The notes under the pieces were generated by a model that worked only from the letters and a program-made list of their open reading frames with translations, was not told where the DNA came from and did not search any database. A stretch of 64,000 nt of DNA from the NCBI GenBank assembly GCA_965202995.1, contig OZ241861.1, positions 483,299 through 547,298 on the forward strand, written 5' to 3'. How positions within the stretch are numbered: position 1 is the stretch's first letter; every line of letters begins with the position of its first letter. Below are positions 9,023 through 15,022 of the stretch, piece by piece. The translations under genes were made by a program, and so were the position numbers. Source of the DNA: Tepidiformaceae bacterium (GTDB lineage: Bacteria > Chloroflexota > Dehalococcoidia > Tepidiformales > Tepidiformaceae).

Positions 9023-9036
9023 GAGTGCGCTCCTTC

Positions 9037-9855
9037 CTATCCCGCGGGGATGGCGTCGTGGGCCGCGAGGATGGCCGCGAAGCGCGCCTCCACCGCGGGC
9101 TGCGTCTCCGGATGGCTGAGCACGTACAGCTCGTTCCCCCGCACCGCGCGCACCACGCGCGCCGCCAGGTCCTCCGGCTCGATGATCTCCTGCGGCACCC
9201 CCTCGCCCTCCACGCGGTTGGGCGGCTCCGGCCCGCCGTACTCCCCGGGGCGGTTGCGCCCGGCCTCCACGATGCGCGAGCGCACGCCCCCCGGACACAC
9301 CACCGACACGCCGATGCCGTGCTCCGCCAGGTCCAGCGCCAGCGCCTCGCTCAGCCCCACCACGCCGTACTTCGCCGTCGTGTAGGAGACGATGCCCGGC
9401 GTGGCCGCGGGCACCAGCCCCGCGATCGACGCCGTGTTCACGATGTGCCCCCCCTCCCCCTGCGCCACCATGCGCGGCAGGAACGCCTGCACCCCGTGAA
9501 TCACCCCGTACAGGTCCACGCCCAGCACCCAGTCCCAGTCCGCCTCCGTCATGTCCTGCGCCAGCCGGAAGGTGACCACGCCCGCGTTGTTGCACAGCAC
9601 GTGCGCCCCCCCGAACTCCGCCCACGCCGCGTCCGCGAGCGCCTCCAGCGACGCCCGCTCCGTCACGTCGTTCTCCACCGCGATGGCGCGCATCCCCGCC
9701 GCCTCCACCGCCGCCACGGCCTCCGCCGCCATGTCCATCTCGATCTCGCCGATGACGACGTTCATGCCCTCGTTGGCGAAGGCCGCGGCCAGCGCCTTGC
9801 CGATGCCGCCGCCGCCGCCCGTGACGACCGCCGTGCGCCCGCGAAGTTCTTCCAC
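9037..9855 (-). CDS. short-chain dehydrogenase/reductase (SDR)
   Basis: This is the C-terminal part of ORF-track 9037..11607. Start GTG 9855 (VEELRGRTAVVTGGGGGIGKA) follows GGGAGG; GTG 9864 is an alternative start. TGxxxGxG and YxxxK (YTTAKYG) motifs are present. Confidence 0.8.
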   Translation of the reverse strand: MEELRGRTAVVTGGGGGIGKALAAAFANEGMNVVIGEIEMDMAAEAVAAVEAAGMRAIAVENDVTERASLEALADAAWAEFGGAHVLCNNAGVVTFRLAQDMTEADWDWVLGVDLYGVIHGVQAFLPRMVAQGEGGHIVNTASIAGLVPAATPGIVSYTTAKYGVVGLSEALALDLAEHGIGVSVVCPGGVRSRIVEAGRNRPGEYGGPEPPNRVEGEGVPQEIIEPEDLAARVVRAVRGNELYVLSHPETQPAVEARFAAILAAHDAIPAG

Positions 9856-9921
9856 GCGAACCACCTCCCGTTGGCGCGGCAGTGTAGCACGCCGCGCCCC
9901 CGCGCAAGCCCCTGCGGCGGC

Positions 9922-9927
9922 TATACT
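9922..9927 (+). promoter_or_regulatory. -10-like hexamer TATACT immediately upstream of hsdR (possible leaderless mRNA)
   Basis: TATACT at 9922-9927 and ATG at 9937, with no Shine-Dalgarno sequence between them. It is the only AT-rich hexamer in the divergent intergenic region. Confidence 0.35.
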
Positions 9928-9936
9928 GCTCCGCCC

Positions 9937-12279
9937 ATGCTCAACGAGGCCGATACCCGCGCCAAGCTGGTCGATCCCGTCCTGCGCGGGCGCGGCTGGG
10001 TGGAAGGGCTGATCAGGCGCGAGCAGACGCCCGGCCGCATCGACATCGTGGGCGCGGGCGGACGGCGCGGACGCGGGCGCTCCACCGACTACCTCCTCCA
10101 TGCCCGCGTGGACGGCAAGCGCACGCTCCCCATCGCCGTGCTGGAGGCGAAAGCCGAGGAGTACGCGCCCGACCACGGCCTCGAACAGGCGAAGCGCGAC
10201 GCGCGCCTCCACCACGTGCCCTTCGCCTTCGCCACCAACGGCCACCTGTTCGTCGAGCACGAGTTCGCCACGGGCCGCACGACCGCCCCCGCGCCGCTGA
10301 CCGAATTCCCCGGCTGGGACGACTTGCTCCGGCGCTACCTGAAGCAGCGGGAGATCGACCTCACGCGCAAGGAGGCCGCGCCGCTCCTGAAGCCCGCGCG
10401 CGCGCACGACCGCCCCTACCAGTACGCCGCCGTGCGCGCCGTGCTCGAACGCATCGCGCGCGGAGAGAAGCGCCCCCGCGCCCTGCTCTCCCTCGCCACG
10501 GGCACGGGCAAGACGCGCATCGCCGTCAGCCTGCTGCGCGCCCTGGACCGCAGCGGCCAACTCCGCCGCGCCCTCTTCGTCTGCGACCGCAAGGAGCTGC
10601 GCGATCAGGCCCTCGGCGCGCTCCACAACGAATTCAAGGCCGACGCCGCCAAGGCCACCACGCGCAACCCCGAGAAGAACGCCCGCGTCATCGTCGCCAC
10701 CTACCAGACGCTGGGCATCGACGACGAGGGCGGCGACGACTCCTACCTCTCGCGCCACTACCCGGAGAACTACTTCAGCCACATCATCATCGACGAGTGC
10801 CACCGCTCCGCCTGGGGCAAGTGGCGCGCCGTGCTCGACCGCAACCCCGACGCCGTCCACATCGGCCTCACCGCCACGCCCCGCACCTGGGAGCGCGTCG
10901 GCGATCCCGACGACATCGAGACCGAGGACGACGACGCGATCACGCGCGACAACCACCAGTACTTCGGCGAACCCGTCTACGAGTACTCCATCGCCGACGC
11001 CATGGACGACGGCTGGCTCGCCGCCATGAAGCTCGTGCGCGCCGAAATCATCACCGCCGGGCAGCGCGAGCGCGAGGAAGGCGTCAGGAGCGGCGAACTC
11101 GACCCTGATCGCATCCGCGACGCTCGCACGGGCGCGCCCGCGGGCGTCAGCGACATGCCCGAAATCTACCGGGCCGCTTCCATCGAACAGCGCCTCCGCA
11201 TCGAGGAGCGCGTCGAGGAGATGTGCCGCGACCTCTTCCAGCGCCTCCTCGAATCGGGCGGACCGCGCCAGAAGACGCTCATCTTCTGCGCCGGCGACGC
11301 CCATGCCGACCGCGTCGCCGCCGAAATGGGCAACCTCTACGCCGAATGGGCCGATCGCGCGGACGAGCGCCCCGTCGATCCCTACGCCTTCAAGTGCACC
11401 GCCCAGGGCGGGGCCGAGCTGCTCTCCGACTTCAAGGGCGCCGCCTCCCGCGCCTTCGTCGCCTGCACCGTCGACCTCATCACCACCGGCGTCGACGTGC
11501 CCCGCCTCCAGAACGTCGTCTGGTTCCGCTACCTCAAGTCCCCCATCCTCTTCCACCAGATGCTGGGACGCGCCACCCGCATCCACGCCGAAAGCGGCAA
11601 GCTCCACTTCACCGCCTACGACTACACCAACGCCAGCCGCCTGCTCGACGCATCCCTCGCGCAGCGCCCCGAGACCGAGCGCGAACGCAAGCCCGACGGC
11701 GAGCGCGAGGAGCGCGACCCGCCCCGCATCTTCGAGGCCGAGGGCGTCGAGGTCCGCATCGAGCCCGAGGGCGTGGTTGTCATGGTTCCCGAAGGCGGTA
11801 CACTGCGCCGCGTGACGCTCGACGACTACCGCGCCGGCATCGCCGAACGCATCCTCGCCGAAGCGGCCGGCATCGACGCCTTCCGCGAACGCTGGATCGC
11901 GCCCGAGGAACGCCGCGCCATGCTCGATAGCCTGCCGCAGGGCTCGGCCAGCGCCGACATCCTGCGCGCCGCCAGCGACATCGACGAGGGCTGCGACGGC
12001 TACGACGTGCTCGCCAGCGCCGCCTTCGGCGAGACGCCCCGCCCGCGCCTCGAACGCGCCGACCGCTTCGAGGAGACGGAGGAGCGCGGCATCCTGCGCG
12101 CCATCGCCCGCCAGTTCGGCTACGGCGGCACGGACGCCCTCGAAAGCAGCGGCCTCTTCCAGACCCCGGGTGTGCGAGCGGCGGGCGGCCTCGCCGCGCT
12201 CGAACCGGAAGCCGCGAACCGCTTGCTCGACCTGAAGCGCCGCGTGCTCGCCACCGACGCGGAGTGGCGCGACGCATGA
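9937..12279 (+). CDS. hsdR: type I restriction enzyme R subunit (EcoEI-like C-terminal domain)
   Basis: ATG 9937 is in frame with ORF-track 9025..12279. N-terminus MLNEADTRAKLVDPVL. Helicase motifs SLATGTGKT, IIIDECHR and LTATP are present, and the C-terminus is EcoEI_R_C-like. Confidence 0.9.
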   Translation: MLNEADTRAKLVDPVLRGRGWVEGLIRREQTPGRIDIVGAGGRRGRGRSTDYLLHARVDGKRTLPIAVLEAKAEEYAPDHGLEQAKRDARLHHVPFAFATNGHLFVEHEFATGRTTAPAPLTEFPGWDDLLRRYLKQREIDLTRKEAAPLLKPARAHDRPYQYAAVRAVLERIARGEKRPRALLSLATGTGKTRIAVSLLRALDRSGQLRRALFVCDRKELRDQALGALHNEFKADAAKATTRNPEKNARVIVATYQTLGIDDEGGDDSYLSRHYPENYFSHIIIDECHRSAWGKWRAVLDRNPDAVHIGLTATPRTWERVGDPDDIETEDDDAITRDNHQYFGEPVYEYSIADAMDDGWLAAMKLVRAEIITAGQREREEGVRSGELDPDRIRDARTGAPAGVSDMPEIYRAASIEQRLRIEERVEEMCRDLFQRLLESGGPRQKTLIFCAGDAHADRVAAEMGNLYAEWADRADERPVDPYAFKCTAQGGAELLSDFKGAASRAFVACTVDLITTGVDVPRLQNVVWFRYLKSPILFHQMLGRATRIHAESGKLHFTAYDYTNASRLLDASLAQRPETERERKPDGEREERDPPRIFEAEGVEVRIEPEGVVVMVPEGGTLRRVTLDDYRAGIAERILAEAAGIDAFRERWIAPEERRAMLDSLPQGSASADILRAASDIDEGCDGYDVLASAAFGETPRPRLERADRFEETEERGILRAIARQFGYGGTDALESSGLFQTPGVRAAGGLAALEPEAANRLLDLKRRVLATDAEWRDA

Positions 12280-12887
12280 ACCCGGGCGACCCGCTCCCCG
12301 ACGGCTGGCGCTGGACCACGCTGGGGGAGTGCTGTGTTCAGGAACGAAAAGCGATCACCAGCGATAGACCCGAGTATACGGAGATGCCTTACCTGGGGCT
12401 GGAACATATTGAAGGAAGCACCGGGAGGATTCTGGTCAGCGAAAAGGCGGCGCGCGGATCTGAATCCACGAGCAACAACTTTTGCTTCACTCCTGAACAC
12501 GTTCTCTACGGGAAACTCCGTCCGTACCTCAACAAGGTGGCCCTGCCCGATTTTTCGGGGCGTTGCAGCACGGAGATTATCCCGCTCCGCCCTGTCGATA
12601 TGGACCGCGGCTTTCTGGCATGGTTCCTTCGCAGGAGCGATACGGTTGAGTACGCCATGCGGGGCAAGACTGGTTCACGAATGCCTCGCGCATCCATGAA
12701 GGAACTCCTGCTGCTCCCCATCCCCCTGCCGCCGCTGGCCGAGCAGCGCCGCATCGTGGCCGCGCTCGAAACGCGACTCGCCGCCGCAGAGCGCGCCCGC
12801 CACGCTGCCCTCTCCCAGCTCAATGCGCTGGAGGCGATGCCAGCCGCCCTGCTGAGGAAAGTGTTTGAACGCGAGGCCAAAATCTGA
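12276..12887 (+). CDS. hsdS: type I R-M specificity subunit, proximal half (TRD1 plus central conserved region), ending at an in-frame TGA
   Basis: ATG 12276 overlaps the hsdR stop (ATGA). PDGWRWTTLGE ... LPIPLPPLAEQRRIVAALE ... is the typical HsdS TRD and conserved helix. Stop TGA 12885-12887. Confidence 0.85.
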   Translation: MNPGDPLPDGWRWTTLGECCVQERKAITSDRPEYTEMPYLGLEHIEGSTGRILVSEKAARGSESTSNNFCFTPEHVLYGKLRPYLNKVALPDFSGRCSTEIIPLRPVDMDRGFLAWFLRRSDTVEYAMRGKTGSRMPRASMKELLLLPIPLPPLAEQRRIVAALETRLAAAERARHAALSQLNALEAMPAALLRKVFEREAKI

Positions 12888-12901
12888 TTTTGGCCTCGCG
12901 T
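12869..12901. other. perfect 15-bp inverted repeat (3-nt loop) containing the hsdS-interrupting stop codon
   Basis: acgcgaggccaaaat / ctg / attttggcctcgcgt. TGA 12885-12887 spans the loop and the first stem base. It is followed by the tandem 9-mers tcgaaattt x2 (12901-12918) and a T-rich stretch. Confidence 0.85.
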
Positions 12902-13001
12902 CGAAATTTTCGAAATTTGTCGTGTTTTCACCGGTGGTCCCGCTCCACAAGGCAATCAGTACTTTGGGGCGTCCGGTCCGCTCTTCTTTCGCGTTCGGGA
13001 C

Positions 13002-13487
13002 TTGTCGGTGAGTGGTCGGACCACAGCGCTGGCAACAGCCCGTGATCGACTCTCCCCGTCTGCGTTGGATACGCTCAAACTGGTTCCCGTCCAGCCGAAC
13101 ACACTGGTCTTCCCGAAGAGCGGAGCCGCAATTGCCACGAATAACCGAGCCCTCACCACAGTGCCCGGATACTTGGTCAGTCACCTCATGGCGCTTGAAG
13201 CCGGAGATTCAGTCCTGCCACTCTGGCTGTACTATGCATTCTGCACACTGGACATGACCGATTTCTCGGATAATACAGGGTACCCAAGCCTCCGCAAAAC
13301 AACGGTCGAGAGGATTCAAATCCCTCTCCCGCCCATCGACGAACAGCGCGCGATCATCACCGAACTCGAACGGGAAATGGCGGCCACGGAGCAGGCGCGT
13401 ACGGCGGCGCGCGAGCGGCTGGCGCTTGCCGAAGCGCTGCCGGGTGCTATCCTGCGGCGCGCTTTCGCGCCCGGAGCCTCCGCATGA
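13002..13487 (+). CDS. hsdS: type I R-M specificity subunit, distal half (TRD2 plus C-terminal conserved region); possibly an untranslated pseudogene fragment
   Basis: ORF-track 13002..13487 (TTG start). The same frame is open from 12888, directly after the TGA, and reads FWPRVEIFEICRVFTGGPAPQGNQYFGASGPLFFRVRDL, a typical TRD start. IQIPLPPIDEQRAIITELE forms the distal conserved helix. The stop overlaps the hsdM ATG. Confidence 0.7.
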   Translation: MSVSGRTTALATARDRLSPSALDTLKLVPVQPNTLVFPKSGAAIATNNRALTTVPGYLVSHLMALEAGDSVLPLWLYYAFCTLDMTDFSDNTGYPSLRKTTVERIQIPLPPIDEQRAIITELEREMAATEQARTAARERLALAEALPGAILRRAFAPGASA

Positions 13488-15022
13488 CCTCGGCCATCGC
13501 CTCCCAGTCCTCGCTCGACGCGCGCATCAAGACCGTGTGCGACGTGCTGCGCCGCTCGAACTGCGCTGGCGCGCTCCAGTACGTGCCGGAGCTGACGTGG
13601 CTGCTTTTCCTGCGCTTCCTCGACGAGCGCGAGGAACGGGAGGCGCGGGACGCGGCGGCGCTGGGGCGGCGGTACGAGGCATCGATCCAGGAGCCCTTCC
13701 GCTGGCGCGACTGGGCCGCGCCCGACGGCGTGAAGCGCAACCTGCTGCAGCATGGGGCGGGGAACTCCGTTTTCGCGTTTCTCGAGGGCGACCTGCTGCC
13801 GTACCTCCACGAGCTGGGGAACAACGGGGGCACGCCCCGCCAGCGGCTCATCGGCCAGATTCTCTCCAGCGTGGACGGCACGCGCGTGGACACGGAGCGC
13901 AACTTCTACGACGTGGTGGACCTCGTGCACGAGATTCGGTCGGGCGAGATGGACGACCAGCACCTGTTCCCGCTGTCGGGGGCCTACGAGGGCCTGCTGC
14001 TCTCGATGGGGGAGAAGAACAACGACGGCGGGCAGTTCTTCACGCCGCGCGAGGTGGTGCGGGCGATGGTGCGCGTGGTCGCCCCGACGGTGGGCGAGAC
14101 GGTGTTCGACCCGTGCTGCGGGACGGGCGGCTTCCTGGCGCAGGCCTTCGAGCACATGCGCGCGAACCTGCCCCCGGAGGCGACGGGCGAGGCGCTGGAG
14201 CGGCTGAGCGGCGAGACGTTCTACGGCACGGAGAAGGACACCCTCGTCTACCCGATCGCGCTGGCCAACCTCGTGCTCCACGGCATCGACGAGCCGCACA
14301 TCCAGCACGCCAACACGCTCACGCGCGCGGAGGAGTACGGCGGGCTCTTCGAGGACGCGCCGGACCAGTTCGACGTGATCCTCACGAATCCCCCGTTCGG
14401 CGGCAAGGAGGGCGCGGACGCGCAGAACCACTTCGACTACCCGACGTCCTCGACGCAGGTGCTCTTCCTGCAGGAGGTGATCGAGAGCCTGAAGCGGGGC
14501 GGGCGCGCGGGCTTCGTGGTGGACGAGGGCCTGCTCTTCCGCACGAGCGAGCGGGCCTTCGTGCAGACGAAGCGCAAGCTGCTGGACGAGTGCGACCTGT
14601 ACTGCGTGGTGAGCCTCGCGCCGGGCGTGTTCACCTCGGCCGGTTCGGGCGTGAAGAGCAACCTGCTGTTCTTCAACAAGGGGCAGCCGACGGAGCGCAT
14701 CTGGTACTACGAACTGTTCCCGCCGGAGTGGACCGACCGGAAGGGGCAGACGCGGCCGGGCACGCGCTTCACCAAGAAGTACCCGCTGACGCTGGCGCAC
14801 TTCGAGGAGTTCTTCGCGCTGCTGCCGGAGCGGGCCGATTCGGAGCGCTCGTGGACGGTGACGCGGGAGCAGGTGGAGGCGAACGGCTACGACCTGAAGG
14901 CGGTCAACCCGCACCGCCCGGACGACTCGGACACGCGCACGCCGGAGGAGCTGCTGGCGGAGATCGCGGGCCACGGGCGGGAGCTGGAGTCGGCGCTCGC
15001 GGAGCTGCGGTCGGCCTTGTAG
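13484..15022 (+). CDS. hsdM: type I R-M N6-adenine DNA methyltransferase subunit
   Basis: ORF-track 13484..15022. It has an ATGA overlap with hsdS. Motifs FDPCCGTGGFL (SAM binding) and NPPFGG (catalytic) are present. Confidence 0.92.
   Translation: MTSAIASQSSLDARIKTVCDVLRRSNCAGALQYVPELTWLLFLRFLDEREEREARDAAALGRRYEASIQEPFRWRDWAAPDGVKRNLLQHGAGNSVFAFLEGDLLPYLHELGNNGGTPRQRLIGQILSSVDGTRVDTERNFYDVVDLVHEIRSGEMDDQHLFPLSGAYEGLLLSMGEKNNDGGQFFTPREVVRAMVRVVAPTVGETVFDPCCGTGGFLAQAFEHMRANLPPEATGEALERLSGETFYGTEKDTLVYPIALANLVLHGIDEPHIQHANTLTRAEEYGGLFEDAPDQFDVILTNPPFGGKEGADAQNHFDYPTSSTQVLFLQEVIESLKRGGRAGFVVDEGLLFRTSERAFVQTKRKLLDECDLYCVVSLAPGVFTSAGSGVKSNLLFFNKGQPTERIWYYELFPPEWTDRKGQTRPGTRFTKKYPLTLAHFEEFFALLPERADSERSWTVTREQVEANGYDLKAVNPHRPDDSDTRTPEELLAEIAGHGRELESALAELRSAL

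Follow-up and report, generated by a model that had tools for sequence, protein, structure and literature searches.

Bacteria are known to switch genes at random through repeat-tract slippage, recombinase-driven inversion, gene conversion, and methylation. Here, we describe an hsdS gene, which encodes the specificity subunit of a type I restriction-modification system, in a 64,000-nucleotide stretch of DNA (the window) from a Tepidiformaceae bacterium of the phylum Chloroflexota (GenBank assembly GCA_965202995.1, contig OZ241861.1, positions 483,299 to 547,298 of the forward strand). This gene is interrupted by a single in-frame stop codon at the exact tip of a perfect palindrome. Relatives carry this hairpin with its tip in one or the other orientation, a pattern suggestive of a reversible, previously undescribed switch between whole and half HsdS.

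One of the closest described systems is NgoAV of Neisseria gonorrhoeae (hsdS1/hsdS2), a phase-variable type IC system in which a half subunit is active and recognizes the symmetric site GCA N8 TGC (PMC9577141, PMC3874165). In NgoAV, as in the window, hsdS is naturally cut after the first target recognition domain (TRD1) and the central helix (at 208 of 410 amino acids [aa] in NgoAV), and one mutation re-fuses the parts. That mutation is reversible and changes specificity; both states occur among strains, many of which have decayed further. The window shows the same architecture, with a first open reading frame (ORF) of 203 aa followed by 199 in-frame codons, and whole alleles with the same arms exist. 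The NgoAV switch, however, works by poly-G slippage and a change of frame, whereas the window has no such tract, its two parts share one frame, and the orientation of the palindrome tip turns sense to stop. Moreover, NgoAV is type IC while the window HsdR is EcoAI-like, and for the window system both switching and activity are putative.

Truncated HsdS proteins that work as homodimers include, besides NgoAV, EcoDXXI deltaC (a Tn5 product), EcoDXXI deltaN, and EcoR124I delta50, and TRD1 plus the central conserved helix suffices for a homodimer that recognizes a palindrome of the TRD1 half-site (PMC3874165). EcoDXXI deltaC and EcoR124I delta50 have the same make-up as the 203-aa product of the window, but they are laboratory mutants of type IC enzymes. 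The same kind of outcome, a change of specificity without gene gain, is reached by inverting hsdS systems of the SpnD39III type (PMC7394358), which depend on a recombinase and on multiple hsdS copies bearing long inverted repeats, and by simple-sequence-repeat type I systems (PMC7383803), which need a repeat tract. Neither arrangement is present at the window locus. We found no recombinase and no extra hsdS cassettes with long inverted repeats around the operon, either in the window or in seven related contexts, and no homopolymer or simple-sequence repeat tract at the junction, where the states differ by the palindrome centre base.

A relevant process has been described outside restriction-modification. 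Template switching at inverted repeats causes spacer inversion and arm homogenization, recurrently and reversibly, in yeast genes (PMC8604942) and in RNA genes (PMC8794818). The hsdS palindromes resemble these cases in their perfect arms and short spacer, in alleles that differ by a reverse-complement spacer, in recurrent flips, and in compensatory arm changes without intermediates. They differ in that the published cases concern amino-acid changes or the upkeep of RNA stems, whereas here a putative stop/sense toggle lies at a domain boundary of a defence gene and is conserved across a phylum. In the literature searched, no paper linked hsdS, a palindrome tip, and a stop codon.

The hsdS locus and its junction palindrome

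The window was compared with relatives drawn mostly from metagenome contigs, plus species genomes (labels beginning with L, P, and G denote loci, proteins, and genomes). Its operon and the parts of hsdS are as follows.

9937-12279, + strand: hsdR (780 aa), an EcoAI-like type I restriction subunit, intact, with Pfam domains ResIII, SWI2_SNF2, Helicase_C, and EcoEI_R_C
12276-12887, + strand: 5' ORF of hsdS, a 203-aa half HsdS ending in TGA, with TRD1 at about 12276-12704 and the central conserved helix at about 12705-12884; Pfam Methylase_S at residues 8-170
12869-12901, no strand: perfect 16+1+16 palindrome ACGCGAGGCCAAAATC T GATTTTGGCCTCGCGT, with an imperfect 21+1+21 extension (2 mismatches) at 12864-12906
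12885-12887, + strand: tip codon TGA, codon 204 of hsdS, with base 12885 (T) as the dyad centre
12888-13487, + strand: 3' part of hsdS, silent in the split state, with the second domain (TRD2) at about 12888-13304 and the distal conserved helix at about 13305-13484; 199 codons open in the same frame
12901-12918, + strand: two tandem 9-mers CGAAATTTT CGAAATTTG, encoding VEIFEIC, the conserved start of TRD2, directly behind the palindrome
13484-15022, + strand: hsdM (512 aa), intact, with Pfam HsdM_N and N6_Mtase

Much of this outline had been anticipated in an earlier note made from the letters alone, and it holds: the order hsdR-hsdS-hsdM with ATGA overlaps (12276-12279 and 13484-13487), and an hsdS frame of normal size (12276-13487, 404 codons) whose single internal stop is the TGA at codon 204. 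We can add that the cut falls exactly after the central conserved helix. The note's remark that the TRD-coding parts are lower in G+C is borne out as well (0.58 and 0.56, versus 0.69 to 0.72 for the conserved helices, hsdR, and hsdM), and we share its view that an alternative genetic code is unlikely, since TGA is common as an ordinary stop in this 2.54-Mb genome. Each half of hsdS matches Methylase_S, the central and distal helices are 53% identical, and the read-through HsdS aligns end to end with the solved HsdS structures 3okg and 5ybb (E ~3e-28). The locus thus has the elements of a type I system, namely a two-TRD specificity subunit with a helix after each TRD and adjoining HsdM and HsdR.

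The feature that the earlier note had not seen is the palindrome, and it explains both the position of the stop and the route to reversion. Its 33 bp lie at the junction between the end of the central coiled-coil helix of HsdS and the start of TRD2. The exact dyad centre, which is also the single unpaired base, is the T that opens the TGA of codon 204. Folded as RNA, the palindrome region gives -32 kcal/mol (z = -5.85). The genome has just 21 perfect palindromes with arms of at least 12 and loops of at most 5, of which the one in hsdS is the fourth longest, so the coincidence of stop and palindrome centre is not due to chance; only four, this one included, have arms of at least 16.

Other roles for such an element were considered. 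A mobile hairpin inserted in frame, of the REP/RAYT type (REP, repetitive extragenic palindrome) or another kind, was rejected because the palindrome is single-copy (its genome matches are its own two arms only) and is not an insertion relative to homologs; the junction linker is equally long in homologs that lack a palindrome. A dimeric protein operator was judged unlikely, as the arms differ at most positions among variants while complementarity is kept, and the hairpin gave no match to an intrinsic terminator or an internal promoter. REP-like palindromes do occur, repeated, around the type I loci of L202 and L203 (genomes G056 and G064) and of L225 (GTAGGGGCG...CGCCCCTAC; ...CCTCCCGCAGG...), and they are unrelated to the junction palindrome. 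Directly behind the latter, alleles with different TRD2 types keep the VEIFEIC stretch and diverge in TRD2 right after it, and this stretch may be the crossover zone for TRD2 exchange.

Arm variants and tip orientation among relatives

Full-length relatives from metagenome contigs encode proteins of 403 to 407 aa with no more than 90% identity, each with a perfect palindrome at the same place. The earlier note had proposed looking in orthologs for a sense codon at the position of the TGA, and there is one: AGA (Arg) where the arms match those of the window, and AGA or AAA (Lys) in the set as a whole, with AAA belonging to sister arm variants. Four arm variants illustrate how the palindrome varies.

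V1: ...GAGGCCAAAATC A GATTTTGGCCTC...; the window is V1 with T at the centre
V2: ...GACGCCACGATT A AATCGTGGCGTC...
V3: ...GAGGCCAAGATT A AATCTTGGCCTC...
V4: ...GCCGCCACGATT A AATCGTGGCGGC...

For V4, the compensatory change in the right arm (CGT to CGG, in L103) was foretold from the protein and then confirmed in the DNA, and the protein junctions of further relatives (PRSP-xxx-L-x'x'x'-WRW) fit a codon-by-codon reverse-complement rule. Across the phylum, all 12 arm sequences at the helix/TRD2 junction are perfect, with Watson-Crick pairing in 192/192 cells and neither wobble nor mismatch. The arm pairs vary on both sides in 16/16 cases and on one side only in none, and the covariation score of 1.009 (0.204 in shuffles) was exceeded in 0 of 500; these palindromes were chosen for being palindromic, so the pair statistics are inflated and describe the set rather than provide an unbiased test.

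Both tip orientations are seen in three arm variants. Among V1 palindromes, the window and L220 have T at the tip, whereas L001, L106, and L107 have A. The V2 tip is T in L109 and L110, giving TAA, and A in L002 and L104, giving AAA. In a variant with 28-bp arms, the loop is TTT for L199 and L222 but AAA for L221. Within this variant, the whole L221 and the split L222, which were recovered from different samples, share 99.8% identity over 3 kb. Their hsdS genes (1236 nt) differ at four bases, three of which are the loop itself, AAA versus TTT, an exact 3-nt inversion that interconverts CAA AGA (Gln Arg) and CTT TGA (Leu stop). The sense form of this variant had been derived from the split allele alone and was later seen as protein P0304.

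Proteins tell the same story. P0300 differs from the first half of the window HsdS at 1 aa in 203 and has Arg at the tip and another TRD2. Clusters at 90% identity hold split and whole members together (the window with P0300; P0122 and P0302 with P0301, the whole partner of L109; P0306 with P0307). In the last of these, the first 202 aa are identical, and P0306 (202 aa, ending ...SPGSP) has a stop where P0307 (406 aa, ...SPGSPLRRTW) has Leu. The sense codons found at the tip make up small shares of their own codon families in the genome: 0.7% for AGA, 5.8% for AAA, and 0.06% for TTA.

Half-size products were found by a search with the 203-aa first half. In 10/10 stop-bearing alleles read at the DNA level, the splitting stop lies in the palindrome tip with TRD2 open in frame behind it; one allele has a further stop downstream. 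These alleles are not confined to the arms described above. Unrelated arms (17+1+17) are found in L111, where the palindrome is centred on the middle A of TAA. From species genomes of the same class come L194, with TAA in the tip, L199, in which the 28-bp arms and TTT loop read CTT TGA, and L196, in which 24-bp arms and the loop CCTA read TCC TAA. Another class of the phylum provides L224, an 18+1+18 palindrome with TAA. The whole alleles L193, L195, and L197 have TTA (Leu) at the palindrome centre.

The window hsdS was present in 0/27 species genomes of the same genus, and a contig scan of named genomes returned only distant relatives (central helix at most 47% identical) with no palindrome save a few short ones that are probably due to chance. 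A scan of Joint Genome Institute (JGI) metagenomes gave 80 loci of the same TRD1 type with the junction palindrome in 0/80; many of these are true half-length hsdS genes (about 200 aa) and serve as precedent only. One JGI contig (VSSL01021045.1, L113) has a two-ORF hsdS, in which a 202-aa half ending in TAA is followed directly by an in-frame ATG and 201 codons, with no palindrome.

The part of hsdS behind the stop is well preserved. All six split alleles checked have 195 to 205 open TRD2 codons that run to the hsdM overlap, and on the window branch the 3' part carries 18 synonymous and 5 nonsynonymous unique codon changes. The independent metagenome scaffold L220, from another sample, shares 97.3% identity with the window across 8.7 kb, including the TGA. 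Between the two, the ratio of nonsynonymous to synonymous substitution rates (dN/dS) is 0.086 behind the stop and 0.037 in TRD2 alone, compared with 0.29 in the first half of hsdS, 0.077 in hsdM, and 0.32 in hsdR, and the binomial probability of no more than 3 nonsynonymous codons among 19 behind the stop is 5.5e-7. TRD2 behind the stop is under purifying selection, with dN/dS as low as that of hsdM. Values of 0.04 to 0.09 behind a shared TGA therefore exclude an old inactivated pseudogene, one of the readings the earlier note had offered.

It is also worth recording some observations on the surroundings and on domain movement. The window's TRD1 type (12276-12704) is found as TRD2 in L106, L107, L199, and L222, and in both positions in L199 and L222. 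A TRD1 type in the TRD2 position amounts to domain movement between the two hsdS positions, and TRD movement of this kind is described for Helicobacter hsdS. The type I operon of the relatives occurs in at least three different genomic contexts; in the flanks of L103, L104, and L109 it stands beside a gene for a large type ISP enzyme (Mrr_cat, ResIII, ISP_coupler, Type_ISP_C), and the two make up a small defence island. Outside the window, the Tepidiformaceae genome has a second Methylase_S pair (C1:980045-981172) inside a 1694-aa frame, which may represent an R-M-S fusion of the type IIG or type ISP-like kind.

Assignment of the window HsdR to the type IB (EcoAI/EcoEI) family is tentative: the protein scores 395.5 bits against NCBIfam NF046051 (restrict_EcoAI), under the curated cut-off of 550, and 24.3 against Pfam EcoEI_R_C, for which the cut-off is 24. 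The true start of hsdR is the ATG at 9937 (MLNEADTRAK), common to L220 and orthologs and with TATACT just upstream. The GTG at 9025, which opens the longest ORF (1084 aa, with 9025-9936 as the extra part), was rejected as about 300 codons too long.

A proposed hairpin-tip flip and its alternatives

On balance, we favor the view that the window hsdS is the split state of a reversible hairpin-tip flip that toggles between full-length HsdS and a 203-aa half HsdS. The flip could arise during replication if the nascent strand switched to the complementary arm on the other strand, copied across the centre, and switched back, that is, by intermolecular template switching leading to inverted-repeat spacer inversion. 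The centre would be replaced by its complement, so that AGA (Arg) would become TGA, and the reverse event would restore AGA; because the inversion is symmetric, reversion is expected at the rate of the forward flip. Template switching would also copy one arm onto the other, which would keep the arms complementary while their sequence drifts. Two hallmarks of the process are found here, with identical arms around reverse-complement spacers and changes in both arms without one-sided intermediates. A single mechanism would thus jointly explain the perfect arms without wobble intermediates, the splitting stops in the tip, the exact inversion between L221 and L222, and the rare tip codons of whole alleles.

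It follows from the sequence that a cell in the split state makes a 203-aa half HsdS consisting of TRD1 and the central helix, while TRD2 is intact but untranslated. Given the type IC truncations, the natural half-size relatives, and the 53% identity of the helices, the half HsdS probably self-associates and acts with HsdM and HsdR on a symmetric bipartite site. There are many natural specificity proteins of the window's TRD1 type with a length of about 200 aa. In the flipped state, the product would be a 403-aa HsdS with both TRDs and an asymmetric target site.

A more tentative step, which we regard as possible and would put at somewhat less than an even chance, is that selection maintains the junction palindrome as a contingency device, a new class of phase variation in which the tip codon is sense one way and stop the other, so that two restriction and methylation specificities alternate without a repeat tract, a recombinase, or a spare gene copy. 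If that holds, the presence of the rarest codons (TTA, AGA, and AAA) at the tip of whole alleles would be a mark of selection for switchability.

Several observations weigh against a reversible flip, in addition to the inflated pair statistics noted above. In the species-level lineage of the window, all three sampled sequences that span the junction (the window, P0298/L220, and the fragment P0299) are split, and the closest whole allele, P0300, has a different TRD2; the split state may be stable here. An inversion of one nucleotide is indistinguishable from an ordinary A-to-T transversion, and the multi-base case comes from a relative and not from the window locus. L222 carries a second stop, CAG to TAG at nt 1183 of its hsdS (L222:4001-5236), in the distal helix, that is absent from its twin L221. 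This suggests that the split state can lead to decay and that the downstream half is dispensable when split. Also, half-HsdS homodimers equivalent to the one proposed have been reported for type IC and for no other type I family (PMC3874165), and the window HsdR is EcoAI-like.

One alternative is that the palindrome is a mutational hotspot with no switching function, kept for mRNA structure, for TRD-exchange recombination, or by self-perpetuation, with an error-prone centre that yields knock-outs that are in effect irreversible and are recent dead ends. Such a hotspot accounts equally well for the recurrence and the tip position of the stops, and it would fit both the nonsense mutation already acquired by the silent half of L222 and the failure to find, at more than 90% identity, a whole allele with the window's own TRD2. 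It fits less well with a symmetric mechanism, under which reversion should match the forward flip in frequency. The TGA is common to the window and L220, which are 2.7% apart, and their TRD2 dN/dS is 0.04 to 0.09, where a dead-end allele would drift towards 1; the full TRD2 frame is kept in every split allele checked; and TTA, AGA, or AAA at the tip of whole alleles resembles the footprint of reversion from a stop. We consider irreversible knock-outs unlikely as a full account, although as to whether the toggle is selected or the palindrome is a hotspot only, both readings stand.

The purifying selection on TRD2 could also be taken as a sign of translational recoding, whether by UGA readthrough, selenocysteine insertion, or termination and reinitiation, so that full HsdS or both halves are made. 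The genome does encode a tRNA-Sec with anticodon tca (found by aragorn), so that some UGA is decoded as selenocysteine, and co-expressed EcoDXXI halves regain wild-type specificity (PMC3874165). Other split alleles, however, use TAA, there is no match to a selenocysteine insertion sequence (SECIS) or any other Rfam family, and the corresponding residue in homologs is Arg, Lys, or Leu rather than Cys. Nor is there a conserved restart: the first in-frame ATG, GTG, or TTG behind the TGA is codon 39 of the 3' part in the window, and its position varies elsewhere. UGA followed by U is a strong termination context. With the tip codon in the ribosomal A site, the 5' arm would lie inside the ribosome, where the hairpin could not act on decoding, and L222 tolerates a second downstream stop. 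We find recoding quite improbable. Ribosome hopping between matched take-off and landing codons was likewise rejected, as the ATC/ATT pairs are present in V1 and V2 and have no counterpart in the other palindrome lineages.

A one-off, ordinary nonsense mutation beside a coincidental palindrome would need only a single A-to-T change, but that change would have had to strike the exact centre of one of the four palindromes with arms of at least 16 in 2.54 Mb, and such a coincidence would be needed again in five or more further palindrome lineages, with only one stop outside the tip (in L222); this explanation is very hard to credit. Even less can be said for an artefact of assembly, with the hairpin tip written the wrong way round. 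Palindromes do collapse in de Bruijn graphs, and in the 28-bp-arm variant (59 bp) k-mers of up to 31 could not tie the orientation of the loop to its flanks. For a 16+1+16 palindrome, in contrast, any k of at least 21 should tie the centre to the flank, which is mismatched at offset 17. That the TGA is an assembly error, a concern of the earlier note, is ruled out by its recurrence in the independent sample and assembly of L220. L109 (European Nucleotide Archive) and L110 (Logan) agree with each other, and split alleles are also found in the single-contig genomes G139, G209, and G492.

Implications of a stop codon at a palindrome tip

Taken together, the half-HsdS architecture that the earlier note had suggested stands, and of its readings phase variation fits best, while those of an old pseudogene and of recoding are not supported. 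The window hsdS is more than a broken gene: it is most simply read, from the alleles compared here, as one state of a recurrent palindrome-tip flip that is found across the phylum and acts as a reversible toggle.

If this is true, a stop/sense toggle carried at the tip of a palindrome that maintains itself would extend the known ways of random gene switching, requiring no enzyme of its own and being all but invisible in annotation, where it passes for a pseudogene. It would offer a search rule applicable to other gene families: look for genes that are intact except for a stop codon placed at the dyad centre of a perfect palindrome. Among genomes and metagenome-assembled genomes, many "broken" hsdS genes would be silent but recoverable, and the host-range barriers and methylomes of uncultured lineages could change by a single templated event.

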